Part shown: one piece after another, positions 28,566-62,387 of the stretch | How positions within the stretch are numbered: the first letter of the stretch is position 1 | How the letters are laid out: the number at the start of each line of letters is the position of its first letter | From: Armatimonadota bacterium | GTDB lineage: Bacteria > Armatimonadota > JAAZEB01 | Reading direction: 5' to 3' | Assembly (NCBI GenBank): GCA_012512265.1 | Contig: JAAZEM010000131.1 | Coordinates: forward strand, 1,837-65,836 | DNA length: 64,000 nt | Notes under the pieces: model-generated | Told to the model about the DNA's origin: nothing | What the model saw: only the letters and a program-made list of their open reading frames with translations | The model's database searches: none | Translations under genes and position numbers: made by a program

Positions 28566-28581
28566 CTAGCCCCCTGCCATT

Positions 28582-40744: not shown

Positions 40745-41113
40745 TCGGTGTCACCCCTCTTTCTACGCCATATCCCAGGGAACGCTGGCCCAGTCACACG
40801 CCCTCGCGCGATCTGGTCTTGCGGTTCAGGCGGTCGTCCGGGGGATAGTGGCCGGGTCGTCGCTATCCGGGGGGAAGAAACCCGGTATCAGCGAGTGGAC
40901 CCGTTCCCGGTTGCGTCTGATGGCGAGCAGGCAGAATAGACGGCATGGGATCCTCTGCCCGAGACGCACTCTTACTCTATATGTATGCGCCGGATCCTCC
41001 CGAGTCCTTCTTCGCGAGCAGGCAGGCACTGCCCCTTCCCAGGATGCGCCGGCGGGTTGCGACGGCTAGAAAGCGCGGTCGGCTGGATGCCCCGGGCAAG
41101 CCAGGATGCGAGG

Positions 41114-42514
41114 CTATTCATGGGTCTCCTGGCCATTCCCCAGTACCAGGTCGACGGCCTGATGGGCCGTTTCCACGCCCACCACACGGAGCCCGCCTCG
41201 GGGGGCGCCGGACTTCACCGCCTGACGTTCGGCGACGATGGCGCGCGTGAATCCAAGGCGCGCGGCCTCGTTTAGCCTTCGGTCGATCTGCTGCACGGCG
41301 CGCACCTCCCCGGCGAGACCCACTTCACCGATGAAGACGGTGGTCGGATCCACTGGGGCATCGAAGAAACTCGACGCGATGGAGACGGCCACGCCGAGAT
41401 CCGCCGCCGGCTCGGTGACGCGGACTCCGCCGGCGATGCTCAGGTAGACGTCGCGAGCTCCCAGACCCAGCCCGAGGCGCTTTTCGAGCACGGCGACGAT
41501 CAGACACATGCGGTTGTAATCAATGCCGGCGGCAACGCGGCGCGGCGTGCCGAAGTAGGCGGGAGATGCGAGCGCCTGCACCTCCACCAGGAGTGGCCGG
41601 GTGCCTTCCAGGGCGGCGATGACGACGGATCCCGGCACCTGCATCGGTCGCTCCGAGAGGAAGATCTCGGAGGGGTTGGCGATCTCGGTCAATCCGCTGT
41701 CGCGCATCTCGAAGATGCCCAGCTCGTCGGTGGAGCCAAAGCGGTTTTTTACGGCGCGCAGCACCTTGAACGCCTGGTGCCGGTCGCCTTCGAAGTAGAG
41801 GACGGTATCGACCATATGCTCCAGGACGCGCGGGCCTGCCAGGTTGCCCTCTTTGGTGACGTGCCCTACCAGGAAGACCGGCAGGTGAGTCGCCTTCGCG
41901 AGGCGCATCAGCCGGGCGGTGCACTCACGCACCTGGCTCACCGTGCCTGGGGCGCTCTCTATGCCCGGCGTGTACACCGTCTGGATGGAATCGATGATGA
42001 GAAACTGCGGTTGGGAAGCCGCAACCTGGCCCTCGATGAGGTCGATGTCGGTCTCCGAGAGCAGGAACAACTCGTCTGCGGCCACCGAGAGCCGGTCGGC
42101 ACGCAGCTTGATCTGCTGAGTCGACTCCTCGCCGGAGACGTAGAGGACGCGCCCGTGGCGCTCGGCCAGGACATTCGCGACCTGGAGCAACAGGGTTGAC
42201 TTGCCGATGCCGGGGTCGCCACCAACCAGGATGAGGGAGCCGGGCACGACGCCTCCCCCAAGCACGCGGTCAAACTCGCCGATGCCGGTCATGCGGCGCG
42301 GGTGCTCCTCGCGATCGATAGCGCCGATGGGCTGCGAGCGCGCCGTGGTGAGACCCCTTCCTCCAGCGGCGGCAGAGCGAGAGCCAGGCGATGCGGGCCG
42401 CACCATCTCCTCCACCAGGCTGTTCCACTCCCCACAGTCGGGGCATCGGCCCATCCATCTGGGCGCTTCATGGCCACAGGCGGAGCACACGAACTTCGTG
42501 TAGGCTTTCGGCAC
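41114..42514 (-). CDS. radA: DNA repair protein RadA
   Basis: Zn finger FVCSACGHEAPRWMGRCPDCGEWNS, Walker A GGDPGIGKSTLLLQ, KNRFG motif, and a Lon-like C-terminus. GTG 42514 is preceded by GGAG, and the upstream ORF-track extension is unlikely. Confidence 0.9.
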   Translation of the reverse strand: MPKAYTKFVCSACGHEAPRWMGRCPDCGEWNSLVEEMVRPASPGSRSAAAGGRGLTTARSQPIGAIDREEHPRRMTGIGEFDRVLGGGVVPGSLILVGGDPGIGKSTLLLQVANVLAERHGRVLYVSGEESTQQIKLRADRLSVAADELFLLSETDIDLIEGQVAASQPQFLIIDSIQTVYTPGIESAPGTVSQVRECTARLMRLAKATHLPVFLVGHVTKEGNLAGPRVLEHMVDTVLYFEGDRHQAFKVLRAVKNRFGSTDELGIFEMRDSGLTEIANPSEIFLSERPMQVPGSVVIAALEGTRPLLVEVQALASPAYFGTPRRVAAGIDYNRMCLIVAVLEKRLGLGLGARDVYLSIAGGVRVTEPAADLGVAVSIASSFFDAPVDPTTVFIGEVGLAGEVRAVQQIDRRLNEAARLGFTRAIVAERQAVKSGAPRGGLRVVGVETAHQAVDLVLGNGQETHE

Positions 42515-42624
42515 GCAAAGACTCCATCCATGAAAAAAGCGGGGGCCCGGCTCTACCGGATTCGATATCGCCGCACCCCCGCGCACCTACAGCGCGATCA
42601 CTCGCGCCTTGAAGAAGGCGGTCG

Positions 42625-45096
42625 CTAGATCGGCAGCGCTGCCTCCTTTTCGGCATCTGCCGCGTCCAGGCTCACCTTATGGAAGGTGATCTTATCGCCT
42701 TCGGCTTCGAGGCGAATCACATCGCCCCGGTGGAAGGTGCCGAGGAGAATATCCTCGGAGAGCGGATCCTCGACCAGGCGCTGGATCGCGCGCCGCAGCG
42801 GCCGCGCTCCGTAGGTCGGGTCGAAGCCCTCCCGCGCGAGCAGGTCACGCGCACTCTCGCTTGTCTCCAGCTCGATGCCGTGCTGCCGGAGCTGCTCGGC
42901 CACGCGCGAGAGCATCAGATCCACGATCTGCCGGATCTCGTACGACGTCAGCGCGTGGAAGAAGACCGTCTCATCGACGCGGTTCAAGAACTCCGGCCGG
43001 AAGGTCTTCTTCAGCTCTTCCATCACGCGCTTCTTCATCGCCTCGTACTGCTTCTCATCCGGCTCCTGCTTCTCGGGAGTGCGGCGCAGGCCCATCCGGT
43101 CTTCCTGGATCATCTGGGCGCCGACGTTCGACGTCATGATGATCACGGCGTTGCGGAAGTCCACCACGCGGCCCTGGCTATCAGTGAGCCGGCCATCCTC
43201 CATCACCTGGAGGAGGATGTTGAACACCTCGGGGTGGGCTTTCTCGATCTCGTCGAGCAAGACCACCGTGTAGGGCCGCCGGCGCACCGCCTCGGTGAGC
43301 TGGCCTCCCTCATCATACCCGACATAGCCCGGAGGCGCACCAACCAGTCGCGACACGGCGAAGCGCTCCATGTACTCAGACATGTCGATGCGCACCATCG
43401 CGGTCTCGTCATCGAAGAGGAACTCCGCGAGCGCGCGCGCCAGCTCCGTCTTCCCGACGCCGGTGGGGCCGAGGAAGATGAACGAGCCCGTGGGGCGGCG
43501 CGGATCCTTGAGGCCCGAGCGCGCCCGGCGAATCGCGCGTGCCACTGCGTTCACCGGCTCGTCCTGGCCGATGATGCGCTTGTGGAGCTGCTCCTCCATG
43601 CGCAGGAGCTTCGCCGTCTCCGCCTCCACCAGGCGTGTTACGGGCACGCCAGTCCACGAGGCGATGATCTGGGCCACCTCTTCCTCATCCACGAGGAGCT
43701 TGGCTTCGGCCTGGCGCTGGCGCCACTCCTCTTCCAGCTCGGCGATGCGCGTCTGGAGACGCTGGACACGCTCCCGAATCTGGGCCACCTCTTCGTACTC
43801 GTAGTTCTTGGTGGCCTCTTCCTTCTGTCGCTGGAGGTCCTCCAGCTCCTGCTTGGCCGTGCGGATCTCCGCCGGCGGGAGCGCCGAGCGCAGGCGCACG
43901 CGCGATGACGCCTCGTCGATCACGTCGATTGCCTTGTCCGGCAGGAAGCGGTCCGTGATGTAGCGGCTCGAAAGCCGCGCGGCCGCCGCCACGGCATCAT
44001 CACCGATGCGCACCTGGTGGTGCTGCTCGTAGCGCTGGCGCAGGCCCTTGAGGATCTCCTCGGTCTCCTCGATCGTGGGCTCATCGACCTTCACCTGCTG
44101 GAAGCGTCGGGCCAGCGCGCCATCGCGCTCGATGTACTTGCGATACTCATCCATCGTGGTCGCGCCGATGCACTGCAGCTCGCCGCGCGCCAGCGCTGGC
44201 TTGAGGATGTTCGAGGCGTCGATAGCGCCCTCGGCGGCGCCGGCGCCCACCAGGGTGTGCAGCTCATCCACAAAGAGGATGATCTCGCCCTGAGCGCGCC
44301 GGATCTCCTCCATCACGCGCTTCATGCGCTCCTCGAACTCGCCGCGATACTTTGTGCCGGCGACCAGACCGGCCAGATCCAGCGAGACAACGCGCTTGTC
44401 CTTCAGCGGCTCCGGGATGTCGCCGCGGACGATCCGCTGCGCCAGACCCTCAGCGACGGCCGTCTTGCCGACACCCGGCTCGCCGATCAGGCACGGGTTG
44501 TTCTTGGTGCGCCGGCTCAGGATCTGGATGACGCGCTCGATCTCCTTGTGGCGCCCGACCACCGGATCGAGCTTATCCTCGCGAGCCAGCTGTGTCAGAT
44601 CGCGCCCGAACTCGTCGAGAGTCGGCGTCTTCGAGCGCTGCCGCTGGGGCGCGGCCGCCACGTCGCCACCCAGGTAGGCGATCACTTCTCGCCTTGCGGA
44701 GAGAAGATCGACGCCCAGCTTGGAGAGGATGCGCGCAGCGAGGCCGTCCCCCTCGCGGATCAAGCCGAGGAGCAGGTGCTCCGTGCCTATATGGTTGTTA
44801 TTCAATTGCCGCGCCTCGTCGTAGGCCAGATCCAGCACCTTGCGCGCACGCGGGTCGAGAGTCATGTCCTGCGTCGTCCGGCCTTCGCCACGGACGATGC
44901 GGCGTTCGACCTCGGCGCGCACGCGGGAGGGCGGCACTCCTAGGCGGTCCAGCACGCGAGCAGCTACGCTATCGCCCTCGCGCACCAATCCCAGTAGGAG
45001 GTGCTCGGGGCTGACGTAGTTCTCGCCCAGGTGGGCCGCTTCTTCTTGCGCGAAGAAGACCACCCGTTTCGCCCTATCGGTAAATCGCTGCCACAT
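42625..45096 (-). CDS. clpC: ATP-dependent Clp protease ATP-binding subunit ClpC
   Basis: Clp_N repeats ([20 protein letters not shown]..., EHLLLGL twice), two AAA+ modules (GEPGVGKT and [11 protein letters not shown]), and a UVR-like middle domain. Confidence 0.95.
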
Positions 45097-47449: not shown

Positions 47450-47714
47450 GCGTTCTTCTCGCGCATCGCCCGCCAGCCGCCCCGCGGTTGCCCGGAGGAT
47501 GGATGGAAGCCCCCAACCCGTCCCTCCCCGCGCTGTCAAAGCTTCTCTGACCGTGACGCCCGCGCGTATCACTGGTTGCGGAAGGAGTAGCGCCACTCGT
47601 CATAGAAGTTGAAATCACGAAGAGGTGTTCTCATGCCTTCATGGAGCTACCGCACGTGAAGACCCCTTGGGCCGCGCCAATCACTCAGCGCGATCGAGTT
47701 GGGGGAACGCCGGA

Positions 47715-48644
47715 GTGACACGACCTCTTCATCCTGGGGAGGCACCTATCGTTGCGGGGCTCACCCTGGCGTTGGGAGAGCCGGCACGGGCAGCGATGTA
47801 TCAGCCCCTGCTACGCCGCGCGGTCGCGGCGGAGTGGGAGATGGCCTTTGCCCGGCTGGCCGCGGGCGGCGCGGGGGCGGTCGCCGGCATCGTGTCTCGC
47901 GAAGGCGAGGGCGATCTCCAGGAGGGGATGTTCGCTCTCCCGCGCCTCGTACACCGGACCGGCATCGAGCCCTATCGTGCCCTCTTCCTCGCGGCGCTCC
48001 ACGACCGGATCCTCGATCGCCAGGAGCACGGCGTGTGCCTCTTCATCGACTGGGATACCGGTGGGCTTGGCGTCTACGCTGTTGACTTCGCCGATGGGAA
48101 CGCGCGCATCCTCACCTCCTCATTTCAACCGGCGATCTGCACGGTGGCGCTGGGAGAGGCGGTCGCCAGGCACGTGCTCCTGCCGGCAGCCATGCCAGGC
48201 GGGGCCAGCCTCTGGAACGATCTGGAGAGCGAGGAGAGAGCGCGTCTCCGCGGGGCAGGGGAGGGCCTGCTGCGGCGGTGCTGGCTTGGAAGTCGGGAGC
48301 GGTTCGTGTGCGCGATCCCGCCGGTGCCGAGGGGCCGGGCTCTCGCCCGCGGCGCGGTACTCTCGATCACGCGCGAGGCGCTCTTCGCGCAGTGTCGGCT
48401 GGCCCTTGCGACGGCGGTTGACGCGCTGAGTGGTGCGCTGGAGACGGTGATGAGCCGCTGCGACACGCCGCTCCGGGTGGTGGTGTCGGGCGAGGCGGCC
48501 CGCTGGCACGAGTTTCAGAGCGCCGTGCGCCGGACATGCGGCGATCTTCCGGTGCATCTGGCGCCAAGGCCGGAGTCTTTCGCGGCGCGAGGCGCCGCCC
48601 TGGCGGTGGCAGAGGAGCACCTTGGAACGAAGGGAACCGTGTGA
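47715..48644 (+). CDS. degenerate Hsp70/actin-fold protein (predicted pseudo-ATPase), first gene of the Hsp70/vWA/tubulin-like cluster
   Basis: Hsp70 NBD motifs are recognisable but eroded. Phosphate-1 GIDLGT is replaced by AGLTLALG, phosphate-2 DLGGGTFD by DWDTGGLGV, and adenosine motif GGSTRIP by VSGEAARWH. The C-terminus ESFAARGAALAV corresponds to 'deaVA.GAA'. The start is uncertain (GTG 47715 or GTG 47625). The stop overlaps the next ATG (ATGA). Confidence 0.6.
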   Translation: MTRPLHPGEAPIVAGLTLALGEPARAAMYQPLLRRAVAAEWEMAFARLAAGGAGAVAGIVSREGEGDLQEGMFALPRLVHRTGIEPYRALFLAALHDRILDRQEHGVCLFIDWDTGGLGVYAVDFADGNARILTSSFQPAICTVALGEAVARHVLLPAAMPGGASLWNDLESEERARLRGAGEGLLRRCWLGSRERFVCAIPPVPRGRALARGAVLSITREALFAQCRLALATAVDALSGALETVMSRCDTPLRVVVSGEAARWHEFQSAVRRTCGDLPVHLAPRPESFAARGAALAVAEEHLGTKGTV

Positions 48645-50761
48645 TGGCAAACGCCATTTCCGTGGGGATCGATCTGGGTACCAGCACGTGCGAGGTCGCC
48701 TATTGGGACTCCGTAGCCCGGCGGATACGCAACGTCTCCTTCGGCGGTGAAGGCGGGCCCATTGTGCCCTCCGCGGTGTGGTTTGATCGCGCGCGAGGGC
48801 GCACGGTGGTTGGTGACCAGGCCTACGCGATGCGCGTGCCCAAACACCGGGAGGTCGTGCTCAACATCAAGCGCCAGATGGGCACCGACTACCGGTTCGC
48901 GCTGGGTGGGCGGGAGTACACGCCTGCCGAGATCTCGGGCGAGATCCTCAGGTACCTGAAGGCGGAGGCGGAGCGCTTTACCGATGGCGAGGTGAAGCAG
49001 GCGGTGATCACCGTGCCGGCCAAGTTTGACACGCTGGCCCGCGAGCACACCGAGGAAGCGGCGCGGATCGCCGGCCTGGAGACGCTGATGCTCCTGCCGG
49101 AGCCCGTGGCCGCGCTTATCGGCTATGAGAGCGTGGCCCAGGATCCCGAGCGCGAGTATGTCGCCATGGTCTACGACTTCGGCGGCGGCACCTTCGACTG
49201 CAGTGTTGTCCATGCCAGGGGCAGGCAGTATCGCGTTCTCTCTAAGGCGGGGGTACACCGCCTGGGCGGCGCCCAGATTGACGAGCGGATCGCCGATCAG
49301 TTGATCCGCCCCAAGGTGTTGCATGCGGGCTTCGACCTGGCCAGCGAGGAGGAGTGGGCGCTCAAGATCCGCGCGAAGATCCTCGAGGTTGCGGAGGCCG
49401 CCAAGAAAAGCCTCTCCGATGAAAGCCGGCGCTCCGTGGTCGCCGTGCTCCCCCATCTCGTGGCGCCGGGGCGGCCTCCTCAGACCGTGCGCGTGGAGAT
49501 CACCCAGGAGGATCTGCAGAAGACCATCGCTGACCTGTTGCGTGTGGCCAACGAGCAGATGGCGCTCGCCCTGGAGAACGCGGGAATCTCTCGCGCCGAG
49601 CTCGATATGGTCGTCCTTGTCGGTGGCTCGACGCGCCTGCCCGCGATTCGAGAGGCTGTTCGCCAGTTCATGGGCGAGAAGGCGTTCGACGGCAGGGATG
49701 GCGGGGTTCGCAAGGTGCTCGCCGATGCCAATCCGGATCTCGTCGTCTCGCGCGGCGCCGCGCGCGTGGCCACCTCCTATGACCTGCGCGACGAGCGAAT
49801 TGAGCTGGTCGATATCCTCCTCGACACTGTCTACCTGCGCGTGCCGGGTTCCCTCACTCAATTCAGGCCGCTCTTCGCTCGGGGCACCGAGATCGAGCAG
49901 GCGAAGCGCACGCTTCGGCTGCAGTGGCCCCGAGGCGACACCGTCGCCGTCGATCTCTATGAGGGCGAGAAGGACGGCGCCCCGGGAGCGAAGTACGTGG
50001 GCACCCTCAAGTTGGGTCCGGCCTCTGTGCCCAAAGGGACTCCCGTTGAGCTCACCATCCAGTACCGCACCGACCGCGCGCTCCCAGAGGTGACGGCGCG
50101 GGTGAGGAAGACGGGCACCCCCATCCGGGCCACGGTGGAGTACGAGCAGCATAGCGTCCAGGCATCGGGATCGGCACGGCTGCAGGTGACCCCGGAGCTG
50201 GACCTCGTCTTCTGCATCGACACCACGGGGAGCATGGTGCATGGCGACCACCTCGAGAAGCTGCGCCACTGCTGCACCCGCTTCGTCAACGCCCTTGCCG
50301 AGAGTGATCTGGATCTCCGCCTGGCGGCGATCAGCTTTGGCGACCGCGCCGGCGGCGAGCGCGAGACGGTCTACTCCTTCACCCCGGACCCGCGCCTCTT
50401 CATCACGCGCGTTGGAAGCCTGAACGAGAACGACGGGGGAGACGAGCGGGAATCGGCGCTCGATGCACTGGCCGTGGCGCTCCGGCTTCCCTTCCGCGAG
50501 GGAGACACCCGGCATCACATCGTGCTCGTTACCGACGCGCCCCCGCACCGGCCGGAGAAGGGCTCGCTAGAGCAACTGGTCTCGCAACTGGCTGCCCACA
50601 ACATTCGAGTCGATGTGGTCGGGCCGTTCTGCCAGGAGTATGACACCGTGGTCGCTGGCACGGGAGGGCGGCTCTACAACATCGACGACGAGCTGGATCA
50701 GCTGTTTGCCGATCTCGAGGAGAGTATCGGGCACGCGAGCAGCGGCACGGAAGGGGCATGA
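48644..50761 (+). CDS. Hsp70-family ATPase (NBD plus beta-sandwich substrate-binding-like domain) fused to a C-terminal von Willebrand factor A domain
   Basis: Canonical motifs GIDLGTSTCEVA, ITVPAKFD, LLPEPVAALIGY, VYDFGGGTFDCSVV, and VVLVGGSTRLPAIREAV. An SBD-beta-like segment reads VDLYEGEK...GTPVELTIQYRTD. The vWA domain carries the MIDAS motif LVFCIDTTGSM (DTTGS at 50219-50233). Confidence 0.85.
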   Translation: MANAISVGIDLGTSTCEVAYWDSVARRIRNVSFGGEGGPIVPSAVWFDRARGRTVVGDQAYAMRVPKHREVVLNIKRQMGTDYRFALGGREYTPAEISGEILRYLKAEAERFTDGEVKQAVITVPAKFDTLAREHTEEAARIAGLETLMLLPEPVAALIGYESVAQDPEREYVAMVYDFGGGTFDCSVVHARGRQYRVLSKAGVHRLGGAQIDERIADQLIRPKVLHAGFDLASEEEWALKIRAKILEVAEAAKKSLSDESRRSVVAVLPHLVAPGRPPQTVRVEITQEDLQKTIADLLRVANEQMALALENAGISRAELDMVVLVGGSTRLPAIREAVRQFMGEKAFDGRDGGVRKVLADANPDLVVSRGAARVATSYDLRDERIELVDILLDTVYLRVPGSLTQFRPLFARGTEIEQAKRTLRLQWPRGDTVAVDLYEGEKDGAPGAKYVGTLKLGPASVPKGTPVELTIQYRTDRALPEVTARVRKTGTPIRATVEYEQHSVQASGSARLQVTPELDLVFCIDTTGSMVHGDHLEKLRHCCTRFVNALAESDLDLRLAAISFGDRAGGERETVYSFTPDPRLFITRVGSLNENDGGDERESALDALAVALRLPFREGDTRHHIVLVTDAPPHRPEKGSLEQLVSQLAAHNIRVDVVGPFCQEYDTVVAGTGGRLYNIDDELDQLFADLEESIGHASSGTEGA

Positions 50762-50766
50762 CACCA

Positions 50767-52298
50767 TGGCACGGATTGCTGAGAGGCCGCCAATCGTTAT
50801 CGGCGTGGACCTGGGGAATGCCTCCTGCCGGATGGCGCCCTGGCGCAACGTGAACAGCCACTCGCCAACGCCCGATACGATGGGCTTTCGCTCCTGCCCG
50901 GCGGTGGTGGCGCGCGACCATGAGGAGGGCGGGTGGCTTGCCGGCGCCAGCGCCCTGGAGATCGCCTATCGGGATGGGGTGGAGCTGTTTGACCACCTGA
51001 AGGACGGCATCCTCCAGGAGCGCGGGGCGAACGCGCGGAAGACGGCTGTCCAGCGCCTGCTCTCCAAGCTCAAGTTTGATCTCCAGGCGGAGTGCGCCGC
51101 GCGCGTCATTGACGCCGTGCTTTCCGTTCCCTACTCGTACACGCTGAAGCAGCGCCGGGCGCTCCGCAACGCCTGCTCGCTGGCGGGTCTCCCCGTGGCC
51201 GGGCTGATCAACGAGCCGGAGGCGGCTGTTCTGGGGTATCGGATTGACGAGCAGATTGAGGAAGGCAGCGAGCGGATTCTCGTCTTCGATGCCGGGGCCA
51301 CGCGGTGCACCGCGAGCGTGGTCCGGCTGAGCAAGCAGGGGGCCTACATCGATATCGAGCTCCTGAGCGAGGCGCACGCAGTTACAGAGGAGGGAGAGCC
51401 GGTCGGCGGCGACAGGATCGACGCCCGGCTGCTCGAGATGTTCGAGAGGGGCCGGCTGCAGATCCCGCCACTGCCTTCGCCAGAGGCCCAGGCGGCCGGG
51501 GATCAGATGGACCCGGTGGAGTACGAGCGCTGGCTGCGGCAACAGCTCCGGCGTGTCCTGCGCGAGGCCCGGCACCAGTTGAGCGGCGAGACCTCCTTCG
51601 AGTTTTCGGTGCCCTGGGCCGAGGAGAGCCTCGGCCGGCTGACACGCGACCATCTGGAGCGATGGGCCAGCTTCGATACCGAGATCACCGCGGCGATCCA
51701 GATGGCGGTGCAGGGCGCGCGCGACCGCGATGCCCCGAACGGCCTCCGGAATGACCAGATAGACCGCGTCCTGATCACCGGTGGGCTCAACCGCTCGCCT
51801 TTGATCCGCCGGCTCGTGGATCACTTCCCCCATGTGGAGCCGTGCGAGGATGGGTTCGAGGAGTACGCGGTCGCCTATGGCGCGGCGCGGTGCGCGGCGA
51901 TCCTCACGGGCCGGTGCGAGGGAGTGGTCTTCCGCCCGCGCGAGACGCCCGCGTTTGGGATCCGCACCGGGATCGACACCTTCGACAAGGTGATCCCGGA
52001 AAACGCGCCGCCAGGGTTCAAGGCGAAGAAGGTCTACACCCTGCCCAACCGCTACGCCGACCGCATGGTGCTGGAGGTGTGCCAGGGCTTCTCCCGACGG
52101 TTCCAAGACGAGCTGTCGCTGGGCGCGAAGGAGCTCCCCCTCCAGTTCCCCGAGGGCGCCGGCAAGGGCACCTACCTCGAGCGTGAGATCCACGTCGAGA
52201 TGGATCTCGCCGATACCAGGCTCCTGGTCACGGTGACCGACCGCACCAAGGGGATTTCCCAGCCGGTGCCCGATAGGCTGGAGCTCGAGGTGAGGTGA
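50767..52298 (+). CDS. divergent Hsp70-like protein (NBD plus SBD-beta-like) with partly degenerate nucleotide-binding motifs
   Basis: VIGVDLGNASCRMA (phosphate 1, T to N), LSVPYSYT, LINEPEAAVLGY, VFDAGATRCTASVV (degenerate phosphate 2), VLITGGLNRSPLI. It starts 5 nt after the previous stop and follows GGAAGGGG. Confidence 0.8.
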
Positions 52299-52310
52299 AG
52301 GAGGAAGCCC

Positions 52311-52889
52311 ATGGAAGGCCGTCCGAGAACGGTGGAAGAGGTCGACGAGAGGCAGAGGACGCTGCGGGAGGAGTTTCGCCGGCTCAACGATGCGCTTGAA
52401 AGCAAGTTTGGAGAAGCGATCACGAAGCGTCAGATCCTGGATGCCGCGCAGGCGTGCGAGGTGCTCCGACAGTTAGCTCGGGAACTGAAGGTGCTGAGCG
52501 ATGAGAGTGACAGGATGCGGGAACCCGAGGCGAGGCAGAGGGCGCTCGAGAGGTTCGTCAGCGGCCGCATGGATGACAAGGTGGGTGCCATCCAGAGCGA
52601 GGAGATTGGCAAGCTCAAGGATGATCTCAACGCGATACAAGCGGAACTGGCCAATCTGAGGGAGCAGCTAGAGACTGGGGTCAACCATGCGCTTCAGAAG
52701 ATAGCGGATGCGCAAGGGAAGGTAGATGTGACCGATGGTCTCCTGAAGGAGGCCATCAGGCAGCGGGACGATCTTTCCCAGAAAATCGAGCGCCTCGAGA
52801 GGATTGCCAGGGATCTGGATGCTTGCGAAAGGATGGCGGAGGTCGCTGGGGCTGAGCCAGCCGGCGGCCAGTGGGGGGATCACGGGTAA
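52311..52889 (+). CDS. coiled-coil protein (hypothetical)
   Basis: AAGGAGGAAG RBS. The 192-aa sequence is rich in E/R/L/K/Q with a heptad-like character. I see no globular motif. Confidence 0.6.
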   Translation: MEGRPRTVEEVDERQRTLREEFRRLNDALESKFGEAITKRQILDAAQACEVLRQLARELKVLSDESDRMREPEARQRALERFVSGRMDDKVGAIQSEEIGKLKDDLNAIQAELANLREQLETGVNHALQKIADAQGKVDVTDGLLKEAIRQRDDLSQKIERLERIARDLDACERMAEVAGAEPAGGQWGDHG

Positions 52890-52953
52890 CCGCCCCGGAT
52901 GTGTGGCGCGGTTTGCTATCCCGGAACGCCAGGGAGAGAGGCTGGGCTCGAAG

Positions 52954-54495
52954 ATGAAGAACGACTGGGGCCGGGCGGACTGGAGTCGGGTATTCTATGT
53001 ATCGCTGGTGTTCGCGATCGTGCTTGTCCCTGCCGCGTTGATCCATGTTCTCTACCGCCACTGGGGAGTCCCTGCCGCGTTGATCCCGACGGTCTGGGAA
53101 GCCCCGTGGTTCGAGCACTTGGTGGTAGTCTTTGCGTTTATGTCAGTGGTCGTTGCCTGGATCAGCTCTCGGAAGGCCAGGGAGTCGCCGTTGAAACCTG
53201 AGCCCGCTCTGGAGTCGAGCCCGCGGGTAGAGCCCTGGCGGGCGGAGAGCCTGCAGGAAGAGTGGAATGGCTGGGAGCGAAAGCTCGACACCTACCGCTG
53301 GATCCTGGACGGGGATCTGCCCGCGCTGGATCCGGGAGAATTGAGCCAGGCGCAGGCTGCATTCAACAGCTTGCGGGAGGGGATCGAGCGCTTGCAGGAC
53401 CCGGGCGATTCCGAGCGGCCTCGTGCCAACGTCCCGGACCGCACCTGGGTCCGGAATAGCCTCGAGACGGGCATCAGTGCGATACTCGACCGGGAAGAGG
53501 AGAGGCAGCGCCTTCGCGCTCTCGTTGAGAAGACGGTGACGGAGTTCCGGGAGCAGGTGGAAACCCTGCGGGAAGAGGTGCGCGTGCTTCAGCGAGAGGC
53601 GGGCGTGCCGGCGGAAGAGGCAGAAGGCCCGGGCGAGTCTGACAGCGGGGCGGGCCACCTTGCCAGCTTGCAGGAGAAGATAGGAGAGCTCCAGCGGCGT
53701 GTTGAGGCGCTGGCGGGTGAGTCCGCCGATGAGACTTCGGGCGCAGGAGCAGACGTGCTCCAGACCATCGACGGCCGGCTGTCGCGGATTACCGATGCCC
53801 TGGAAGCGAGGGCGTACGAGATTTCAATCCGCGATTTTCACCGCCGGCACGAGGAGTTCACTAACCTTCGCCGCCGGCTTGCCGGGGAGGTGCTGCCGCT
53901 CCTGGAAACCGCTCCTGGGGACGAGGCGGCGCGGCATTGCCACCGCGCGCTCTCGGAGCTGCTGGAGCGCCTGGATGGCCGTCTGGCGGCTGCGAAAGAG
54001 GCGGTCCGCCACCGGGGCGAAACCCCGGGTGGAGGCGGAGAGCTGGAGCGGCGCATCGAGCGGCTGGAGACGCGCGCGCACCGGCTGAAGGATGGTGGTG
54101 ACGCCTGTCTGATGGAGCTGGCCGAGCCGCTGGTGCAGGAGCACCTGCGTCCCTTAGTCGAGATGATCATCCGCGATTTTCTCCGGCCGCTGCTGGAGGA
54201 GGCGACACCGGTGGAAGGAGAGACCGCCAGGAGTGCCCGCGCCACGTTGCTGGGCGAAGTGGTAACGCTCGCGCGTAGAGTCCTGTTGGAGAGCATCCAG
54301 TTGGAGGTGATCGACCCAAAGGCAGGCAGCAAGCTGGAGGAGGAGGCGCACGACGAGATAGAGGTACTCGCCCCGGAGGGAGACGCGAGCCCGAACACGG
54401 TGGCGGAGGTGGTCGCGCCGGGCTACCGCTGGGCGGGAGAGGTGATCCAAAGGGCGCGCGTGTGCTCCTATCGGGAGAGAATGGACAGGGCCTGA
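52954..54495 (+). CDS. membrane-anchored long coiled-coil protein with a GrpE-like C-terminal beta-domain
   Basis: Two N-terminal TM helices (VFYVSLVFAIVLVPAALIHVLY and LVVVFAFMSVVVAWISS), then about 350 aa of coiled coil. The C-terminus LEVIDPKAGSKLEEEAHDEIEV...NTVAEVVAPGYRWAGEVIQRARVCSY parallels the GrpE C-terminus (cf. E. coli VEVI...PLDPNVHQAIAMV...[23 protein letters not shown]). The start is uncertain (an ATG at 52804 is also in frame). Confidence 0.65.
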   Translation: MKNDWGRADWSRVFYVSLVFAIVLVPAALIHVLYRHWGVPAALIPTVWEAPWFEHLVVVFAFMSVVVAWISSRKARESPLKPEPALESSPRVEPWRAESLQEEWNGWERKLDTYRWILDGDLPALDPGELSQAQAAFNSLREGIERLQDPGDSERPRANVPDRTWVRNSLETGISAILDREEERQRLRALVEKTVTEFREQVETLREEVRVLQREAGVPAEEAEGPGESDSGAGHLASLQEKIGELQRRVEALAGESADETSGAGADVLQTIDGRLSRITDALEARAYEISIRDFHRRHEEFTNLRRRLAGEVLPLLETAPGDEAARHCHRALSELLERLDGRLAAAKEAVRHRGETPGGGGELERRIERLETRAHRLKDGGDACLMELAEPLVQEHLRPLVEMIIRDFLRPLLEEATPVEGETARSARATLLGEVVTLARRVLLESIQLEVIDPKAGSKLEEEAHDEIEVLAPEGDASPNTVAEVVAPGYRWAGEVIQRARVCSYRERMDRA

Positions 54496-55623
54496 ATGGC
54501 GGGCAACCGGAGCGCGCTTCTCTCGGAATCAGAGCTCCGCGAGCTGCGCGCGCTGCTCTATGCGACCCGGTCGAAGAGCATCGACACCTTGCAGCGGCAG
54601 GTGAGCCAGATCGGGATCCGCCTGGCGGATCTCCTCGTCAAGGTGGCTGCCGGGCTCGAGGCCGGCCTTCAGGAGACGCGCGGGCACCTGAAGGTGGCGG
54701 TCGAGACGATGATGGAGCAGGCGGAGGAGCTGGAGCAGATCAAGGCGTGGATCGAGGCGGCCTGCCTGACACCGGCCTCCCTCGCCAGCTCCCCCCGAGG
54801 TGGAAAAGACGCTGCCGAGGTCGCCCGCGTGGCGGAGAAGCTCTCCGAGACGGAGACGCGCCTGGCCGCCCTCGAAAGCGAGGTGGCGGATGTGAGCCAC
54901 CAGCTGCGGACCGCGGGCGAGCGTGTCGAGACGCCCGACCGGCCTGCGGGGGACGAGGCGCTGTTGGAGCGCCTGGAGGAGCACATCTCTCTTCTCGCCC
55001 TGGCGGGGGCTCGCCGGGTGGCGCGCGACCGCCAGGCGCGCATCCGGGCGCTCGAGCGTGTGGCCGAAGCGGTCGAGCAGCGGTTCATCCCGCGCGCCGT
55101 GGCCTTCCGCCGGCAGCTGAGCGGCGATGTGACGAGCTATGACGGCTGCCGGGCTCTGGAAGAGCGGGCGCGCGAGGCACGCCGCCTGGGAGAGGTGGCG
55201 GCGACGGAAGCCATGCGGTTGAGCGCCGCGCCCGACTCGGGGTCGGAGCGATGGGAGAGCGTTCGCGAGCTCCTGGCGCTGGGCGGAGTGCCCGATGGCG
55301 AGGACGACCTCGATTTTGAGATCCGGCGCGTGCTTAGCGAGTGGTTCCTCCCGCTCATCGATCTCACCGTCTCCTATCGGGAGACGGGGGCTCCAGAGGG
55401 AGAGGCTGCCTTCCAGGCGCTCCTTGGCGATCTGATGGAGGCGGGCTGGCGGGCGGACCTCGAAGCCATCGTGCCTGCACAGGGGGCGGCGTTCGATCCA
55501 GCGCTCCATGAGGCGGTGGGTTCAACCCCCGCTCGAGACGCGCGCGTGGCGCAGGTTGAGGCGCCTGGTTACTGCTGCGGCGGCGGAATCATGCGCCTGG
55601 CCAGAGTGCGTGTGCGCGAGTGA
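54496..55623 (+). CDS. coiled-coil protein with a GrpE-like C-terminal beta-domain (putative nucleotide-exchange factor)
   Basis: The ATG abuts the preceding TGA. A long helical region ends in LEAIVPAQGAAFDPALHEAVGSTPARDARVAQVEAPGYCCGGGIMRLARVRV, matching the GrpE pattern 'G..FDP..HeAv......V..v...GY...g.i.R.A.V.V'. Confidence 0.7.
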   Translation: MAGNRSALLSESELRELRALLYATRSKSIDTLQRQVSQIGIRLADLLVKVAAGLEAGLQETRGHLKVAVETMMEQAEELEQIKAWIEAACLTPASLASSPRGGKDAAEVARVAEKLSETETRLAALESEVADVSHQLRTAGERVETPDRPAGDEALLERLEEHISLLALAGARRVARDRQARIRALERVAEAVEQRFIPRAVAFRRQLSGDVTSYDGCRALEERAREARRLGEVAATEAMRLSAAPDSGSERWESVRELLALGGVPDGEDDLDFEIRRVLSEWFLPLIDLTVSYRETGAPEGEAAFQALLGDLMEAGWRADLEAIVPAQGAAFDPALHEAVGSTPARDARVAQVEAPGYCCGGGIMRLARVRVRE

Positions 55624-55644
55624 CAGGATGTGATGGGAGAAGTG

Positions 55645-57639
55645 ATGGCGGATAGTCGTTCGGCGAGCGTGGTGGAGGAGTTCCTGCCAGCGCCCTATCC
55701 GGCGCCTCTCTTCGTGGCGTGGGAGCAGCACCTCGATTTCGGGGAAGTTCGCCGGCCAGCGAGGAAGCGGTTGACATTCAAGGTCTCCAACATCGGCGGG
55801 GATGGTAACCTGGATGTGACGCTCCGACCGAACATCCCGGACCAGCAGTGGTTCCAGGTTCGCCCGACTCATCTCGTGATTCCGGCGGGCGAGGATCGCA
55901 TCGTTGACGTGGAGATCGATACGAGCCTGGAATCGTGCCCCCTCGGCCGGCACGACCTCGACATCCAGGTAGAGGCGCCCGGATCGATGGAGCCGGAGAT
56001 CCCGCGCATTCGGGTGTCGGTGGAGGTGCTCCGGGAGATTGTGCTGGTGTGCGACCCGGGCGAGATCGACCTGGGCGAAGTGCCCCTGGGCGAGAGCCGC
56101 ACCGTGACGGTGAGCATCCAGCGCAGTGATGAACGCGAGGTTTGCCTGAACGAGCGCCTGATCCAGCTGGTGGATGAAACCGGCAAGCCCCGGCCGGCGT
56201 GGGCCGACATTGAATTGGGAGCGCCGGGCCGGAAGCAGGAAGTCACGCTCACCTTCCACACGGCCAACCGGGCGATGCGCGAGTACCGCTGTGAACTGCG
56301 CCTGTGTGATACCGTCCCTGAGGTGAACCAGGTGGCGGTGCCCATCCACGTTTCCGTCAGCCCGCCGCCGCAGCTGGAGGTAGAGTGGGCGATCCCGCCG
56401 ATGCCGAACTTCACCGGCGACACCCAGGACGCGCAGCTCGCGGTGGGCAACTCCGGGGGCGGCGTCCTCCGCGGCCGAATCGCTGGCGACCAGTACTGGT
56501 TGCGTGTCCTGAATGGCGAGTTCAGCGTGGCGGCCGGCCAGATGCACACGGCGACGGTCCGAATCGGTGACGCCCGGTTGCGGGTTGGCACGTATCACGG
56601 TCATCTTGAAATCTTCTCGAATGACGGCGGGCGTAGCCGCGTGCTGCGCGTGCCAATCGAGCTGGAGGTGGTGGACCGGAGCCGCTGCCCCGTGGAGATC
56701 TACTTCGAGCCGGATCTGGGCGCGCTTCACCGCCGCCAGACGGCGGAGCGCGCGCTCACGATCACTAACCTGATGGCCCAGCCGTTTGAGGGGAGACTGA
56801 TCTCCGGGAGCCCCGACTGGATCCGGGTGAAGGGGGGCATGGAGGAGGTGCGCCTTGGCCCGGGCGAGTCCAGGCAACTCCTCCTGGAGGTCGACCCGCG
56901 GCGCCTCCCCGCGAAGGACGGCCCCACCAGGCACAAGGCGGCGTTGCAGCTGGTCGATTCCACGGGCAAGGAACGCTGGAAAAAGACCGCGACTTTGGAG
57001 CTCGTGCCCGCACCGTCCTCGCCGCTCGTGCGGTTGCTTCTGGCCTTCTGGGCGTTGGTGCTCCTCGCGGGCCTGGCATGGGGCGGAAAGCAGGTGTATG
57101 ACGGCCCGGTGCAAAGGATCCTCTCCGCGCGCACCCGGGCCGCGACGGTGGCCACGCCGGCGCCCGCACCGGCGGCACCGCCGGCTCAGCAGCAGGCGGC
57201 CACGGCCAGACCGGCCCCGGCTCAGCCGGCTCCTGAGTCGCAGAGCGCGCCTGAGGCCACGGAGAAACCACGCAGGGTAGCGCCGGATTCGGCCCGGGCG
57301 CGCTCTCTCTACGCGGAGGGGACCGCGCACTTCCAGCGGGGAGAGTGGCGCCTGGCTGCCGACCTCTTTGACCAGGCTGCGGCGGTGGATCCCGCGCCCG
57401 CTGGGTCGCTTTTGATGGTGGGCCGCAGCCGCTACCACCTCGGCGAGTGGGATGCCGCGGCGAAGGCGCTGGAGGAGGCGACGCGGCTCAAGCCCGATTC
57501 GGCGGCGGCCCACTTGTGGCTGGGCCGGGTCTATCTGGAGCAGGGCAACCGGGAAGCGGCCTCGCGTGAGTTTGAGGCCGCGCTGAAGGCAGATCCGATG
57601 AATAGGCAGGCACGCGATGAGCTTCAGAAGCTTCGGTAA
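55645..57639 (+). CDS. membrane protein with 4-5 N-terminal Ig-like (ASH/PapD-like) repeats, one TM helix, a Pro/Ala-rich linker and C-terminal TPR repeats
   Basis: Repeats take the form LDFGEV...LTFKVSNIGGDG.L, IDLGEVPLGESRTVTVSI, LAVGNSGGGVLRG and so on. The TM helix is LVRLLLAFWALVLLAGLAW, and the TPR region reads ARSLYAEGTAHFQRGEWRLAADLFDQAAAVDP...LGRVYLEQGNREAASREFEAALKADP. ATG 55645 follows GGGAG, with in-frame alternatives at 55630 and 55633. Confidence 0.7.
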   Translation: MADSRSASVVEEFLPAPYPAPLFVAWEQHLDFGEVRRPARKRLTFKVSNIGGDGNLDVTLRPNIPDQQWFQVRPTHLVIPAGEDRIVDVEIDTSLESCPLGRHDLDIQVEAPGSMEPEIPRIRVSVEVLREIVLVCDPGEIDLGEVPLGESRTVTVSIQRSDEREVCLNERLIQLVDETGKPRPAWADIELGAPGRKQEVTLTFHTANRAMREYRCELRLCDTVPEVNQVAVPIHVSVSPPPQLEVEWAIPPMPNFTGDTQDAQLAVGNSGGGVLRGRIAGDQYWLRVLNGEFSVAAGQMHTATVRIGDARLRVGTYHGHLEIFSNDGGRSRVLRVPIELEVVDRSRCPVEIYFEPDLGALHRRQTAERALTITNLMAQPFEGRLISGSPDWIRVKGGMEEVRLGPGESRQLLLEVDPRRLPAKDGPTRHKAALQLVDSTGKERWKKTATLELVPAPSSPLVRLLLAFWALVLLAGLAWGGKQVYDGPVQRILSARTRAATVATPAPAPAAPPAQQQAATARPAPAQPAPESQSAPEATEKPRRVAPDSARARSLYAEGTAHFQRGEWRLAADLFDQAAAVDPAPAGSLLMVGRSRYHLGEWDAAAKALEEATRLKPDSAAAHLWLGRVYLEQGNREAASREFEAALKADPMNRQARDELQKLR

Positions 57640-58882
57640 CCGTGGGTGGAGGCGGCTCCTTCTTGCCACGCTTGTTGGCGCGGCCAGCCTGGGCGCGTGC
57701 CCGAGGGTTTGGGCAGAGGCAGGCGAGGGCGTCGAGACTGTGCAGGAGCAGGCGGGGCAGATCGCGCAGAAGATCGCGCCGTACAAGGGGAAGTTTGTCG
57801 TCTTCGTCCTGGACGTCTCTGGGAGCATGACGAACCAGGGGCGGCTGCAGGCGAGCAACGAGGCGCTGGCCACGATCGTGCGCAATGGCACGCGGGTGGG
57901 CGACCGCGTCGCGATCTTCTCCTTCGACGTCAGCCCGGAGCTGCTGCTTAAGGAGACGGTCATCCAGAAGGAGAGCGACAAGAAGATCGTGATCGACCGG
58001 ATCCCGACGGTGAGCAGCAACACGGTGGGCTCGAACATCCGGTGGGCGCACCACGAGGCGCTCAAGCTGCTGGAGCCGTCGGAGTGTCCTTACCAGGTGT
58101 GCGTCCTGGTGAGCGACAACCTGCACGACCCGCCGGGTGAAACGGACCGCTTCTATCCGGATTACCTGAACTACTACATTCCCGGCACGATGGAGGCGCC
58201 CTCCACCCCGCAGAGTAACGACTACGCTCGCCTGCGCGAGAAGTTTCGCGGCGGCACCCGGCTCACCTTCGGGATTGGCGTCAACATCTCCGAGACGGGC
58301 GCCGTGCAGGAGCTGCCGCCACTGAAGAAGACTCCGGCCTGGGTGTGGCTGGTGGCCGCGGCGGCGGTTGTCGCGCTGGCTGGCGCCGGCTGGGTGGGAG
58401 CAAGCGCGTGGCGACGCGCCGCAGAGGCACGCCAGATCGCCAACAGTCCGATGAACGTTGTGATTCGCAACGTCACCCCGGATGGCACGGCCAGCCCCTT
58501 CAGCGCGGAGACGCATCTGGTGCTGCAGCCGAACGAGTCGTTCACCATCGGAGGCGCGCCTTTCGGTATCGGGCAGGTGGTTTCCCTCCCCGGCGCCATG
58601 ATGAAGGAACCGGTGGCGCGAGTCCACCGGCGCGGCCTTAGCTTCAGCCTCGAGGCGCTGCCCGGCCAGGAGACGGTGGCGGTTTACGTGGACGGCATCG
58701 AGGCCGTGCCTGGCGGAGATGCGATCCCTATCCGCTTGGGGCAGACGATCAGCGTGCGCTATCGGGTGATGGCTGGGATCGAGAAGAGCGTGGATCTTCT
58801 CTTCGCAGACCCGCGGGCGGCCGAAGAGCAGGCGGCAACCGAGGAAGTAGTCTTCGACGAGAGTCACCAGTCTCCCTATTGA
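57617..58882 (+). CDS. lipoprotein-like vWA domain protein with a TM helix and a C-terminal FHA-like domain
   Basis: Signal peptide with a possible lipobox (LGAC). vWA MIDAS FVVFVLDVSGSM (DVSGS at 57812-57826). TM helix AWVWLVAAAAVVALAGAGWVGA. The C-terminal segment FTIGGAPFG...VARVHRRGLSFSLE...VYVDG..V.....IRLGQTISV is FHA-like (tentative). It overlaps the previous gene by 23 nt. Confidence 0.75.
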   Translation: MSFRSFGNRGWRRLLLATLVGAASLGACPRVWAEAGEGVETVQEQAGQIAQKIAPYKGKFVVFVLDVSGSMTNQGRLQASNEALATIVRNGTRVGDRVAIFSFDVSPELLLKETVIQKESDKKIVIDRIPTVSSNTVGSNIRWAHHEALKLLEPSECPYQVCVLVSDNLHDPPGETDRFYPDYLNYYIPGTMEAPSTPQSNDYARLREKFRGGTRLTFGIGVNISETGAVQELPPLKKTPAWVWLVAAAAVVALAGAGWVGASAWRRAAEARQIANSPMNVVIRNVTPDGTASPFSAETHLVLQPNESFTIGGAPFGIGQVVSLPGAMMKEPVARVHRRGLSFSLEALPGQETVAVYVDGIEAVPGGDAIPIRLGQTISVRYRVMAGIEKSVDLLFADPRAAEEQAATEEVVFDESHQSPY

Positions 58883-58913
58883 GGGGGAGCGGCATAGCAG
58901 GGGGGAGCAGACG

Positions 58914-62345: not shown

Positions 62346-62387
62346 GACCGTGCCACGTTTGGTTGCTGGTGAGTGGAGGCCGGTGCA

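Follow-up and report, generated by a model that had tools for sequence, protein, structure and literature searches.

A lid-less Hsp70 fused to a von Willebrand factor A domain in a conserved multi-Hsp70 operon of an Armatimonadota bacterium

Introduction

What would an Hsp70 chaperone do with a von Willebrand factor A (vWA) domain on the same polypeptide? The question is raised by a 64,000-nucleotide stretch of an Armatimonadota bacterium assembly (GCA_012512265.1; contig JAAZEM010000131.1, positions 1,837 to 65,836 of the forward strand), here called the window; all positions are given in its numbering unless the locus of a relative is named. A first-pass annotation, made from the letters of the window, had reported a single open reading frame (ORF) at 48644-50761 that joins an Hsp70 nucleotide-binding domain (NBD) and β-sandwich to a C-terminal vWA domain, and had called this combination unusual. 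We analysed the Hsp70-vWA gene together with its relatives and its neighbours, and ask here whether the fusion is genuine, what its two parts have retained and which function its surroundings point to.

Results

Reading frame and authenticity of the fusion gene

The plus strand of the window is a single open frame from 48536 to 50761. Gene calls, Pfam and an AlphaFold2 model support a fusion gene at 48644-50761 (+) with a product of 705 amino acids (aa). Its ATG at 48644 shares one nucleotide with the TGA of an upstream ORF, and we take this ATG to be the biologically sensible start. Pfam assigned the first ~500 residues to HSP70 (PF00012; E 8.5e-66, above the gathering score) and the C-terminal part to three VWA families, confirming the domain order originally reported.

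A frameshift that merges two separate genes was looked for and no such artefact was found. The 705-aa product is identical on eight independently assembled contigs (ENA, NCBI, JGI, Logan). The fused architecture is kept in an orthologue of 66% identity, represented by the loci L011 and L012, and in an orthologue of 54% identity (P0003) on seven contigs. L012 belongs to a metagenome-assembled genome (MAG) of Armatimonadota bacterium isolate AS09scLD_256, and its fusion copy is intact. In L011 (Logan, 838-2984), the N-terminus of the fusion forms a separate 103-aa ORF, whereas L012 (8348-10975) is unbroken. The break falls inside the NBD and probably reflects an assembly or sequencing frameshift. 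Because the eight independent contigs are identical and because orthologues and distant relatives are equally fused, we conclude from the sequences that the fusion is a genuine gene and not an assembly artefact.

The Hsp70 part

The NBD comprises residues 1-382 (48644-49789, +), as delimited by a phmmer search against PDB sequences, by alignment and by motif positions. In the phmmer search, residues 7-474 matched the DnaK structure 2V7Y (E 1e-59); the DnaK and Pfam HSP70 alignments reach their C-terminal limit at residues ~474-503. The catalytic set of the NBD is present in the fusion (D10, K76, E153, D178, GGGT 180-183 and GG 327-328), and in an alignment of 11 fusions with DnaK the residues D10, G12, T13, K76, E153, P154, D178, GGGT180-183, D185 and GG327-328 were invariant. 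Because the Hsp70 catalytic set is invariant, the NBD is predicted to be an active ATPase. The alignments place the interdomain linker at residues 383-396 (DERIELVDILLDTV; 49790-49831, +). It is hydrophobic (ELVDILLD) and pairs with the VLLLDVTP linker of DnaK. A β-sandwich resembling the β-part of the substrate-binding domain (SBD-β) follows at residues ~397-500 (49832-50143, +); it was recognized in the Pfam HSP70/DnaK alignments and in the model, which has eight to nine β-strands at residues 387-499.

The Hsp70 had initially been described as complete. NBD, linker and β-sandwich are indeed present, but the α-helical lid (SBD-α) and the C-terminal tail are absent from the fusion, both in the alignment of 11 fusions with DnaK and in the AlphaFold2 model. 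In the alignment, the vWA domain begins exactly where SBD-α starts in DnaK. Judged by alignment and model, the Hsp70 part is incomplete, being lid-less with a vWA domain in place of the lid.

The full-length AlphaFold2 model had a mean predicted local distance difference test score (pLDDT) of 91.3 and a predicted TM-score (pTM) of 0.81. Its least confident internal segment is the 17-residue connector between SBD-β and the vWA domain (pLDDT 57-73). The NBD-SBD part superposes best on docked, ATP-like DnaK/BiP (3.3-3.5 Å over ~535 columns), which is a property of the model only. In NCBIfam, the protein missed the equivalog cut-offs for DnaK (237 vs 648 bits), HscA (211 vs 709) and PRK11678 (74 vs 331); no NCBIfam model is specific to the fusion family, and the only matches were sub-threshold ones to DnaK, HscA and HscC at about one-third of the cut-off.

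The vWA domain and its metal site

Residues 518-699 (50195-50740, +) are assigned to an integrin-β-I-like vWA domain by Pfam, a model of the isolated domain, Foldseek and a family profile. Pfam matched residues 520-661 to VWA_4 (36.1 bits), VWA (33.5 bits) and VWA_2 (28.6 bits), all above their cut-offs, with E between 6e-9 and 2e-6. Whether the C-terminal region folds as a vWA domain had been left for modelling. Modelled alone with 29 family sequences, it did so with a pLDDT of 90.3 and a pTM of 0.86, and Foldseek paired the model with the integrin β-I and TFIIH p44 vWA domains at a probability of 1.0 (TM-score 0.65-0.71). The family vWA profile matched collagen VI vWA domains and the integrins β-8, β-3 and β-6. 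A single-sequence phmmer search of the domain against PDB sequences gave nothing at E<=1; the relationship to integrin β is visible only by family profile and fold search. Profile and model identify the C-terminal domain as an α/β vWA fold of the integrin-β-I type.

The start of a metal-ion-dependent adhesion site (MIDAS), DTTGS, had been placed at 50219-50233, and these coordinates proved exact: D526-T-T528-G-S530 occupies 50219-50233 (+; residues 526-530) in the alignment of 29 family vWA domains and in the alignment with integrin β-8, where it pairs with VDVSASM. The corresponding stretch of the profile, vDivfviDtTgSM, is paired with VDLYYLVDVSASM. Two later motifs already recognized as vWA signatures, NDGGDERESALDAL (residues 596-609) and LVTDAPPH (residues 628-635), turned out to be the equivalents of further MIDAS elements. 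The former holds G598-G-D600-E-R-E603-S (50435-50455, +), equivalent to the D-x-P-E-G-G metal-ligand loop of integrin β (profile GGDepESsLdA, paired with NIDTPEGGFDA). In the latter, T630-D631 at the end of β-4 (50531-50536, +) supplies the last MIDAS Asp according to the alignments, and pairs with the TD of VMTDQTSH (profile LiTDapph). The integrin β-8 segments in these three pairs we take to be its MIDAS DxSxS motif, its D-x-P-E metal-ligand loop and its last MIDAS Asp.

Across the 29 family vWA domains, D526, S530, G598, G599, E603 and D631 were invariant and T528 nearly so. D600 was invariant in a 12-sequence full-length alignment, and the T630-D631 pair is invariant in the family. Given this conservation of the MIDAS residues across the 29 sequences, the predicted metal site is considered intact and under selection. 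The earlier description of an intact-looking MIDAS holds for the conserved residues and needs one correction: the site is a D-x-T-x-S variant of the integrin-β-I type, with Thr for the middle Ser and a D-x-P-E-S motif instead of the classical Thr. In characterised vWA domains (integrin I and β-I), a conserved MIDAS is the hallmark of binding to an external acidic ligand. No signal peptide is visible in the fusion, so the vWA domain is still predicted to be cytoplasmic.

Relatives and their gene context

In an exhaustive HMMER search of 1.84 billion cluster representatives, the isolated vWA domain had 2731 matches. Nine full-length fusions (689-746 aa, ~28-33% identity to the window protein) were found in the best 150 of the 2731 matches, together with four shorter proteins (430-536 aa) that resemble fragments of the fusion kind. 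Beyond the orthologues of 66% and 54% identity, at least nine clusters (50% identity) carry the fusion architecture at ~30% identity. One of the nine full-length proteins, NCBI MBI3961808.1, carries the annotation 'Hsp70 family protein [Deinococcus sp.]', and the label of a second one reads 'molecular chaperone DnaK'. On this sequence evidence, Hsp70-vWA is a recurrent but unnamed family. The fusion is no one-off, and in every locus examined it is paired with another Hsp70 gene.

The same search returned vWA proteins of other architecture. The top-scoring relatives of the vWA subtype outside the fusion clade, P0123, P0124 and P0127 (1032-1549 aa), carry five to seven tandem copies of the domain, and others of up to 3393 aa carry two or three.

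Another Hsp70 gene directly adjoins the fusion gene in 12/12 loci examined, and a GrpE or GrpE-like gene is present in 7/12. The invariant core across the 12 loci is an Hsp70-vWA gene plus another Hsp70 gene. Five lineages keep a longer gene order: Hsp70-vWA, the partner Hsp70 paralogue Hsp70b, a small protein (a coiled-coil protein in the window), a GrpE-like protein, a protein with immunoglobulin-like (Ig) repeats and in some cases TPR, a transmembrane vWA protein, and a Tubulin_2 protein. This order of the window recurs in the orthologous loci of 66% and 54% identity and also in the distant loci L026 and L027, whose fusions are ~32% identical. In both of the latter, the partner Hsp70 has a specific orthologue (E 1e-35 to 1e-37) and Ig-repeat proteins are encoded as well; L027 adds a gene for a transmembrane vWA protein. 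In the loci L022-L025, L032 and L033 and on the P0170 contig, the fusion has between one and three additional Hsp70 genes next to it, in most cases together with a GrpE of canonical size. A DnaJ-PEGA protein (encoded in one distant locus) or an Fn3-like protein is sometimes found there, and CHAT proteases, a kinase or bpMoxR are sometimes nearby. As far as the gene neighbourhoods indicate, the universal genomic partner of the fusion is a second Hsp70. No Walker A motif was found in the operon genes of L007 (the 54% orthologous locus) and L022-L027, except in bpMoxR of L023. A Pkinase gene lies upstream in L026.

Some of the distant loci have conspicuous further content. L033 (GCA_016199255.1, a Deinococcus sp. 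MAG) has four consecutive Hsp70-family genes at 1-5248, the second of which is the Hsp70-vWA fusion. Genes for CHAT (caspase-like) proteases lie a few kb from the fusion at L022 2686-5922, L023 3373-7878 and L025 1-140; among the encoded proteases are a fusion with a protein kinase and a different one with TPR repeats, and in L023 bpMoxR lies downstream.

A genome collection was scanned by two clade-specific peptide patterns, which is no census; the scan returned one fused locus (L012), together with small vWA proteins from Firmicutes and Anaerolineae that carry no fusion. Word-indexed homologue searches with the vWA domain and with an SBD-vWA profile retrieved few proteins and missed the input fusions themselves, and the frequency of the family is not judged from them. 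A metagenome scan with the Hsp70b profile retrieved only near-identical contigs. In a tblastn search against 72,556 plasmids, only ordinary dnaK genes were matched (~70% query cover) and no record reached >=80%. A scan of viral contigs gave no relative of the fusion.

The operon of the window

In the window, the fusion is gene 2 of a tightly packed plus-strand cluster at 47625-63194 whose spacers are near zero or overlapping. Because of the translational coupling and the tight gene spacing, we regard this cluster as one operon. Its first gene is the upstream ORF of at most 339 aa (47625-48644, +), called as 278-282 aa by gene callers on identical contigs. It is a degenerate, truncated homologue of NBD lobe II: the window and L012 copies together were matched to the NBD profile by hhalign (96%, E 1.6e-9; residues 109-331 to NBD 147-379), while Pfam and NCBIfam gave no match. 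The ORF is present in L011/L012 and not in L007. Its L012 copy has a Pro/Gly-rich repeat insertion (PNPGGNGLA and similar).

The fusion gene is followed by Hsp70b (50766-52298, +), a 510-aa Hsp70 paralogue with NBD and SBD-β and no lid (Pfam HSP70, E 1.8e-35). Its phosphate-2 loop is degenerate (FDAGATRCT, where DnaK has DLGGGTFD) and the residue equivalent to K70 lacks conservation; both features hold across five orthologues. Hsp70b may be a pseudo-ATPase partner that binds nucleotide without hydrolysing it. Specific Hsp70b orthologues lie 3′ of the fusion gene in L012, L007, L026 and L027. The next gene encodes a coiled-coil protein of 192 aa (52311-52889, +) with weak matches to coiled-coil and SMC-like models; a small gene stands at its position in L007, L011 and L027.

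Two GrpE-like genes come next. GrpE-L (52954-54495, +; 513 aa) has two N-terminal transmembrane helices (VFYVSLVFAIVLVPAALIHVLY and LVVVFAFMSVVVAWISS, identified by manual reading of hydropathy), a long coiled coil and a GrpE C-terminal β-domain (Pfam GrpE, E 2.2e-6, 27.9 bits vs a cut-off of 25.8, profile positions 104-161). GrpE-S (54496-55623, +; 375 aa) consists of a coiled coil and the same β-domain (Pfam GrpE, E 1.9e-7, 31.4 bits vs 25.8), and its L012 orthologue is 45% identical. Both proteins lie just above the Pfam cut-off and match only in the C-terminal β-domain (profile positions 104-165); all NCBIfam GrpE equivalogs were far below their cut-offs. The pair suggests a membrane-anchored heterodimeric exchange factor.

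The second half of the operon encodes a 669-aa protein (55630-57639, +) matched by Pfam TPR families and HYDIN_VesB_CFA65-like_Ig. It is composed of Ig-like repeats of the ASH/HYDIN type, a transmembrane segment at about residue 464, a Pro/Ala-rich linker and C-terminal TPR. L012, L007 and L027 have orthologues of this Ig-transmembrane-TPR protein; L026 encodes a protein with Ig repeats. Next to it lies the second vWA gene of the operon at 57617-58882 (+; 421 aa), which had earlier been described as encoding a periplasmic vWA protein of the same operon. That description stands: Pfam VWA_2 matched with E 2.1e-9, and a signal-like N-terminus precedes a predicted extracytoplasmic vWA domain (DVSGSM), a transmembrane helix at about residues 239-275 and a cytoplasmic β-rich tail. 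L011/L012 carry orthologues of it, and the corresponding position in L027 is taken by a vWA gene.

The largest product, of 1143 aa (58914-62345, +), is a Tubulin_2 (FtsZl1)-SHOCT protein (Pfam Tubulin_2, E 3.1e-73; SHOCT, E 1.8e-11) with the GTPase-domain motifs GCGGTG (residue 17) and GGTGSG (residue 175). Tubulin_2 genes stand at the equivalent operon position in L007 and L011/L012, and in L027 the next ORF starts with VIVGLGGTGKEI, which resembles the tubulin T1 loop. In the window protein, a helical region of ~700 residues leads into about three C-terminal SHOCT-like repeats; for the Tubulin_2 protein of L007 no SHOCT match is on record. The last tightly spaced gene (62373-63194, +) encodes a 273-aa protein with a transmembrane segment and a C-terminal CxxC...CxxC zinc-ribbon-like motif. 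It had no match in Pfam, NCBIfam or PADLOC, and its membership in the system is uncertain.

Four partners of the fusion in this operon have transmembrane helices, those of GrpE-L being based on the hydropathy reading. No Walker A/P-loop was found in any operon protein of the window, and no Pfam GTPase family matched among the ten operon proteins. We presume that the searched Pfam library holds GAP1 models. None gave a match at E<=0.01 among the ten proteins; the library includes bpMoxR PF20030, which is derived from PMC7159879. We also considered the upstream ORF and the long GrpE-like proteins as a hidden GTPase or GAP1 and rejected them, as there is no P-loop and the upstream ORF is an NBD fragment.

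The wider window

Upstream of the operon the window carries housekeeping genes: ClpC-like, RadA, PIN-TRAM, IspDF, a class IV aminotransferase and a GFO/IDH/MocA oxidoreductase. The ClpC-like Clp_N+AAA_2 ATPase, RadA, the PIN-TRAM protein and the fused IspD-IspF lie at 38437-45096 (-). A Tad/Flp-type pilus cluster at 16501-25487 (-) comprises a CpaF-like T2SSE ATPase, RcpC/CpaB and two secretins (one with LysM and BON). This cluster with its two secretins points to a diderm host and to an outer membrane, and an exported or periplasmic location of the second vWA protein is therefore meaningful. The highest AT skew of all 2-kb bins (0.214) is found at 28001-30000, overlapping a DsbD-like gene on the minus strand.

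PADLOC-DB v2 had no match for the fusion, Hsp70b, the second vWA protein, the tubulin-like protein or the Ig-TPR protein; it gave weak coiled-coil matches only (E>=1e-4), to two coiled-coil proteins. With Rfam at gathering thresholds, the whole 64-kb window was without a match. A scan for promoters and terminators yielded counts no higher than in shuffled sequence.

Discussion

Our analysis leaves hardly any doubt that the Hsp70-vWA fusion of the window is genuine, that it is lid-less and that its multi-Hsp70 operon is conserved. For its function we propose a dedicated Hsp70 machine whose vWA adaptor would control a membrane-associated tubulin-like/vWA complex. This proposal draws on analogy, and we put its probability at roughly one in two. 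The fusion would be the active ATPase of a multi-Hsp70 module that also comprises the degenerate Hsp70b, the fragment of NBD lobe II and two coiled-coil GrpE-like exchange factors, one of them membrane-anchored; in the clade of the window, this module would be embedded in an FtsZl1 (Tubulin_2)/vWA membrane operon. The vWA MIDAS would capture, in a metal-dependent manner, an acidic side chain of a specific partner or client and so act as a built-in adaptor, a role modelled on the separate vWA co-chaperones of MoxR AAA+ ATPases. ATP hydrolysis by the NBD and exchange driven by the GrpE-like proteins would then govern binding and release by SBD-β. The outcome would be the remodelling or gating of a membrane-associated complex in which the tubulin-like GTPase would be joined by the Ig-transmembrane-TPR protein and the exported vWA protein. 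Through this complex, a signal from the envelope or from outside the cytoplasm might be linked to the assembly of the polymer. Biologically, the system could serve to remodel the envelope or the membrane, or to respond to conflict or threat.

Two observations speak against this proposal. No Tubulin_2 gene was found in the distant loci L022-L025, L032 and L033 or on the P0170 contig, so that the linkage is confined to the clade of the window; therefore, the tubulin-like protein cannot be the universal client. In addition, the operon of the window encodes no J-domain protein (no HPD motif and no DnaJ Pfam match in the operon); such a protein may be encoded elsewhere in the genome.

Comparative genomics offers a partial precedent for the components and for their joint occurrence (PMC7159879, PMC2875224). 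FtsZl1, now Pfam Tubulin_2 (PMC9871819), was defined by Makarova and Koonin (Biol Direct 2010; PMC2875224). Its operons usually encode vWA proteins with an intact MIDAS and often a diverged GTPase, kinases and OmpA proteins, and were predicted to specify membrane-associated, membrane-remodelling multiprotein complexes (PMC2875224). The operon of the window resembles them in its Tubulin_2 gene, its two vWA proteins (DTTGSM and DVSGSM) and its partner genes, which are rich in transmembrane segments and lineage-specific. Unlike in those operons, a diverged P-loop GTPase, a protein kinase or OmpA was not found in it, and it has a three-gene Hsp70 module and two GrpE-like genes that are absent from the description in PMC2875224.

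The closest functional analogues of the proposed adaptor are the pairs of MoxR AAA+ ATPases with vWA proteins (RavA-ViaA, CoxD-CoxE and the VMAP ternary system), in which an NTP-driven ATPase likewise works with a MIDAS-containing vWA protein thought to bind clients. MoxR-vWA pairs have been described as chaperone/co-chaperone pairs in PMC7159879. In contrast to these pairs, the ATPase of the fusion is an Hsp70 (actin-like ASKHA fold) on the same polypeptide as the vWA domain, and the window has no MoxR. The best structural match of the vWA domain is the integrin β-I domain, with a one-to-one correspondence of the motifs D-x-[ST]-x-S-M, D-x-P-E and T-D, but the fusion domain is bacterial, predicted to be cytoplasmic, ~180 aa long and without the hybrid-domain insertion context, at an identity of 15-18%. 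Hsp70-like domains are also combined with vWA (TerY-P) proteins in CoCoNuT/McrBC systems (PMC11090510). Membership in these was ruled out, as the locus is without a McrB GTPase, McrC/DUF2357, kinase or phosphatase.

An operon of this kind might instead be an anti-phage or anti-invader conflict system of the type described by Kaur, Burroughs, Iyer and Aravind (eLife 2020; PMC7159879), which we consider possible though clearly less probable than the proposed machine. Hsp70-vWA and GrpE would then form an NTP-dependent threshold switch that replaces the DO-GTPase-GAP1 pair or MoxR-vWA, and polymerisation of the tubulin-like protein or of Hsp70 would be the effector. In molecular mechanism this explanation overlaps with our proposal; the two differ in biological role. 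The nearest published neighbourhoods are the GAP1-N2 DO-GTPase systems, defined by one or two DO-GTPases of the TRAFAC clade paired with GAP1 (GAP1-N2, -M and -C domains) and read as conflict systems in that paper. Three non-overlapping themes are described there within the GAP1-N2 type. One combines a tubulin with two vWA proteins; another combines HSP70 and GrpE, sometimes with a second HSP70, with an FNIII-repeat protein fused to DnaJ/TPR. Both are reported mainly from Actinobacteria and Firmicutes and are predicted to form regulated cytoskeleton-like assemblies (PMC7159879). An HSP70-vWA fusion is not mentioned in the main text of PMC7159879, and its supplementary text is without HSP70 or tubulin entries.

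Measured against this published description, the operon of the window has several components in common with the GAP1-N2 systems: a protein of the tubulin superfamily that is extended C-terminally by a helical region, two vWA proteins of which one is membrane-bound with an extracellular vWA domain, HSP70 with GrpE and a second HSP70, many transmembrane components, and a protein in which β-sandwich repeats are joined to TPR (in one distant locus, to DnaJ). Zinc ribbons are frequent in the DO-GTPases of the published systems; the 273-aa protein of the window, which has a zinc-ribbon-like motif, is without a P-loop. A conflict role would also fit the CHAT proteases, the CHAT-kinase fusion, bpMoxR, TPR proteins and an HNH gene beside distant fusion loci, the patchy, lineage-specific distribution of the family, and the recent experimental link of MoxR-vWA pathways to threat sensing (PMC13622651). 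However, the DO-GTPase and GAP1 that define these systems are absent from the window and from every related locus examined, and the window unites the tubulin and HSP70 themes in one operon, with an Armatimonadota MAG as the nearest named relative. Furthermore, PADLOC gave no convincing match in the ten operon proteins beyond the weak coiled-coil ones, Pfam revealed no nuclease, TIR, pore-former, peptidase or other recognisable toxic effector in the operon, housekeeping genes lie upstream of it in the window, nothing was found on viral contigs and no fused copy on plasmids. On its gene content, we do not assign the locus to the DO-GTPase systems; it belongs with the FtsZl1/vWA operons, to which it adds a new Hsp70 module.

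A broader outline would accommodate either biological role, and we offer it tentatively and with less conviction than the proposed machine. Hsp70-vWA, Hsp70b and the GrpE-like proteins may constitute a hitherto unrecognised class of Hsp70-centred molecular switch, in which the exported vWA, TPR and Ig domains would sense an extracytoplasmic or invader signal and the assembly of an FtsZl1 polymer at the membrane would be ATP-gated.

It is improbable, in our view, that the vWA domain is no adaptor for another protein but an intramolecular replacement of the lid, closing or plugging the SBD-β cleft, possibly in a metal-dependent way, and thereby tuning substrate kinetics. The position of the domain exactly at the start of DnaK SBD-α would suit such a role, as would the defined inter-domain arrangement suggested by the pTM of 0.81 and the closeness of the NBD-SBD model to docked, ATP-like DnaK/BiP. 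Against it, the MIDAS is conserved at all five ligand positions, which elsewhere marks binding to an external acidic ligand, and the 17-residue connector to SBD-β is the internal segment of lowest confidence in the model.

Still more improbable is that the fusion is an extra general-purpose DnaK paralogue for stress proteostasis in a neighbourhood without functional meaning. Its NBD and SBD-β are clearly DnaK-like (30-35% identity), and public annotations call its relatives 'molecular chaperone DnaK' or 'Hsp70 family protein'. However, it is far from the equivalog cut-offs of DnaK, HscA and HscC, its lid is missing, the gene order is kept down to ~30% identity, and translational coupling and tight spacing indicate one operon. 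Compared with the canonical DnaK-GrpE system, the fusion shares the full NBD catalytic set, a hydrophobic linker and SBD-β, and its operon encodes proteins with a GrpE-like C-terminal β-domain; it differs in having neither the SBD-α lid nor the C-terminal tail, in the lack of a J-protein in its operon and in a score of about one-third of the DnaK equivalog cut-off. The GrpE-like proteins of the window, at 375 and 513 aa, have long coiled coils and one is membrane-anchored. Finally, a sequencing or assembly artefact or a pseudogene joining two genes can be dismissed: such a join might be read from the separate N-terminal ORF of L011 and from the JGI locus L023, where the NBD and vWA parts were called as two overlapping genes, but such splits fall inside the NBD and none at the SBD-vWA junction, the product is identical on eight independent contigs, and intact orthologues (L012 and the seven P0003 contigs) and at least nine distant full-length fusions exist.

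To our knowledge, no member of the Hsp70-vWA family has been studied experimentally, and we know of no function established by experiment for FtsZl1 (Tubulin_2)/vWA operons. Annotated just as 'DnaK' or 'Hsp70 family protein', the family is hidden from genome annotation. If the proposed mechanism is true, the fusion would represent a second, independent wiring of a vWA/MIDAS adaptor to a remodelling ATPase, here an Hsp70 fused to the adaptor at the position of its lid, whereas the two are separate proteins in the MoxR systems. It would also provide a biochemical handle on the FtsZl1/vWA operons predicted in 2010, and the MIDAS and ATPase residues together with the candidate partners would make the question directly testable. 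Should the switch outlined above be true, it would mean that a chaperone has been turned into the controller of a cytoskeletal or immune-type response in bacteria.

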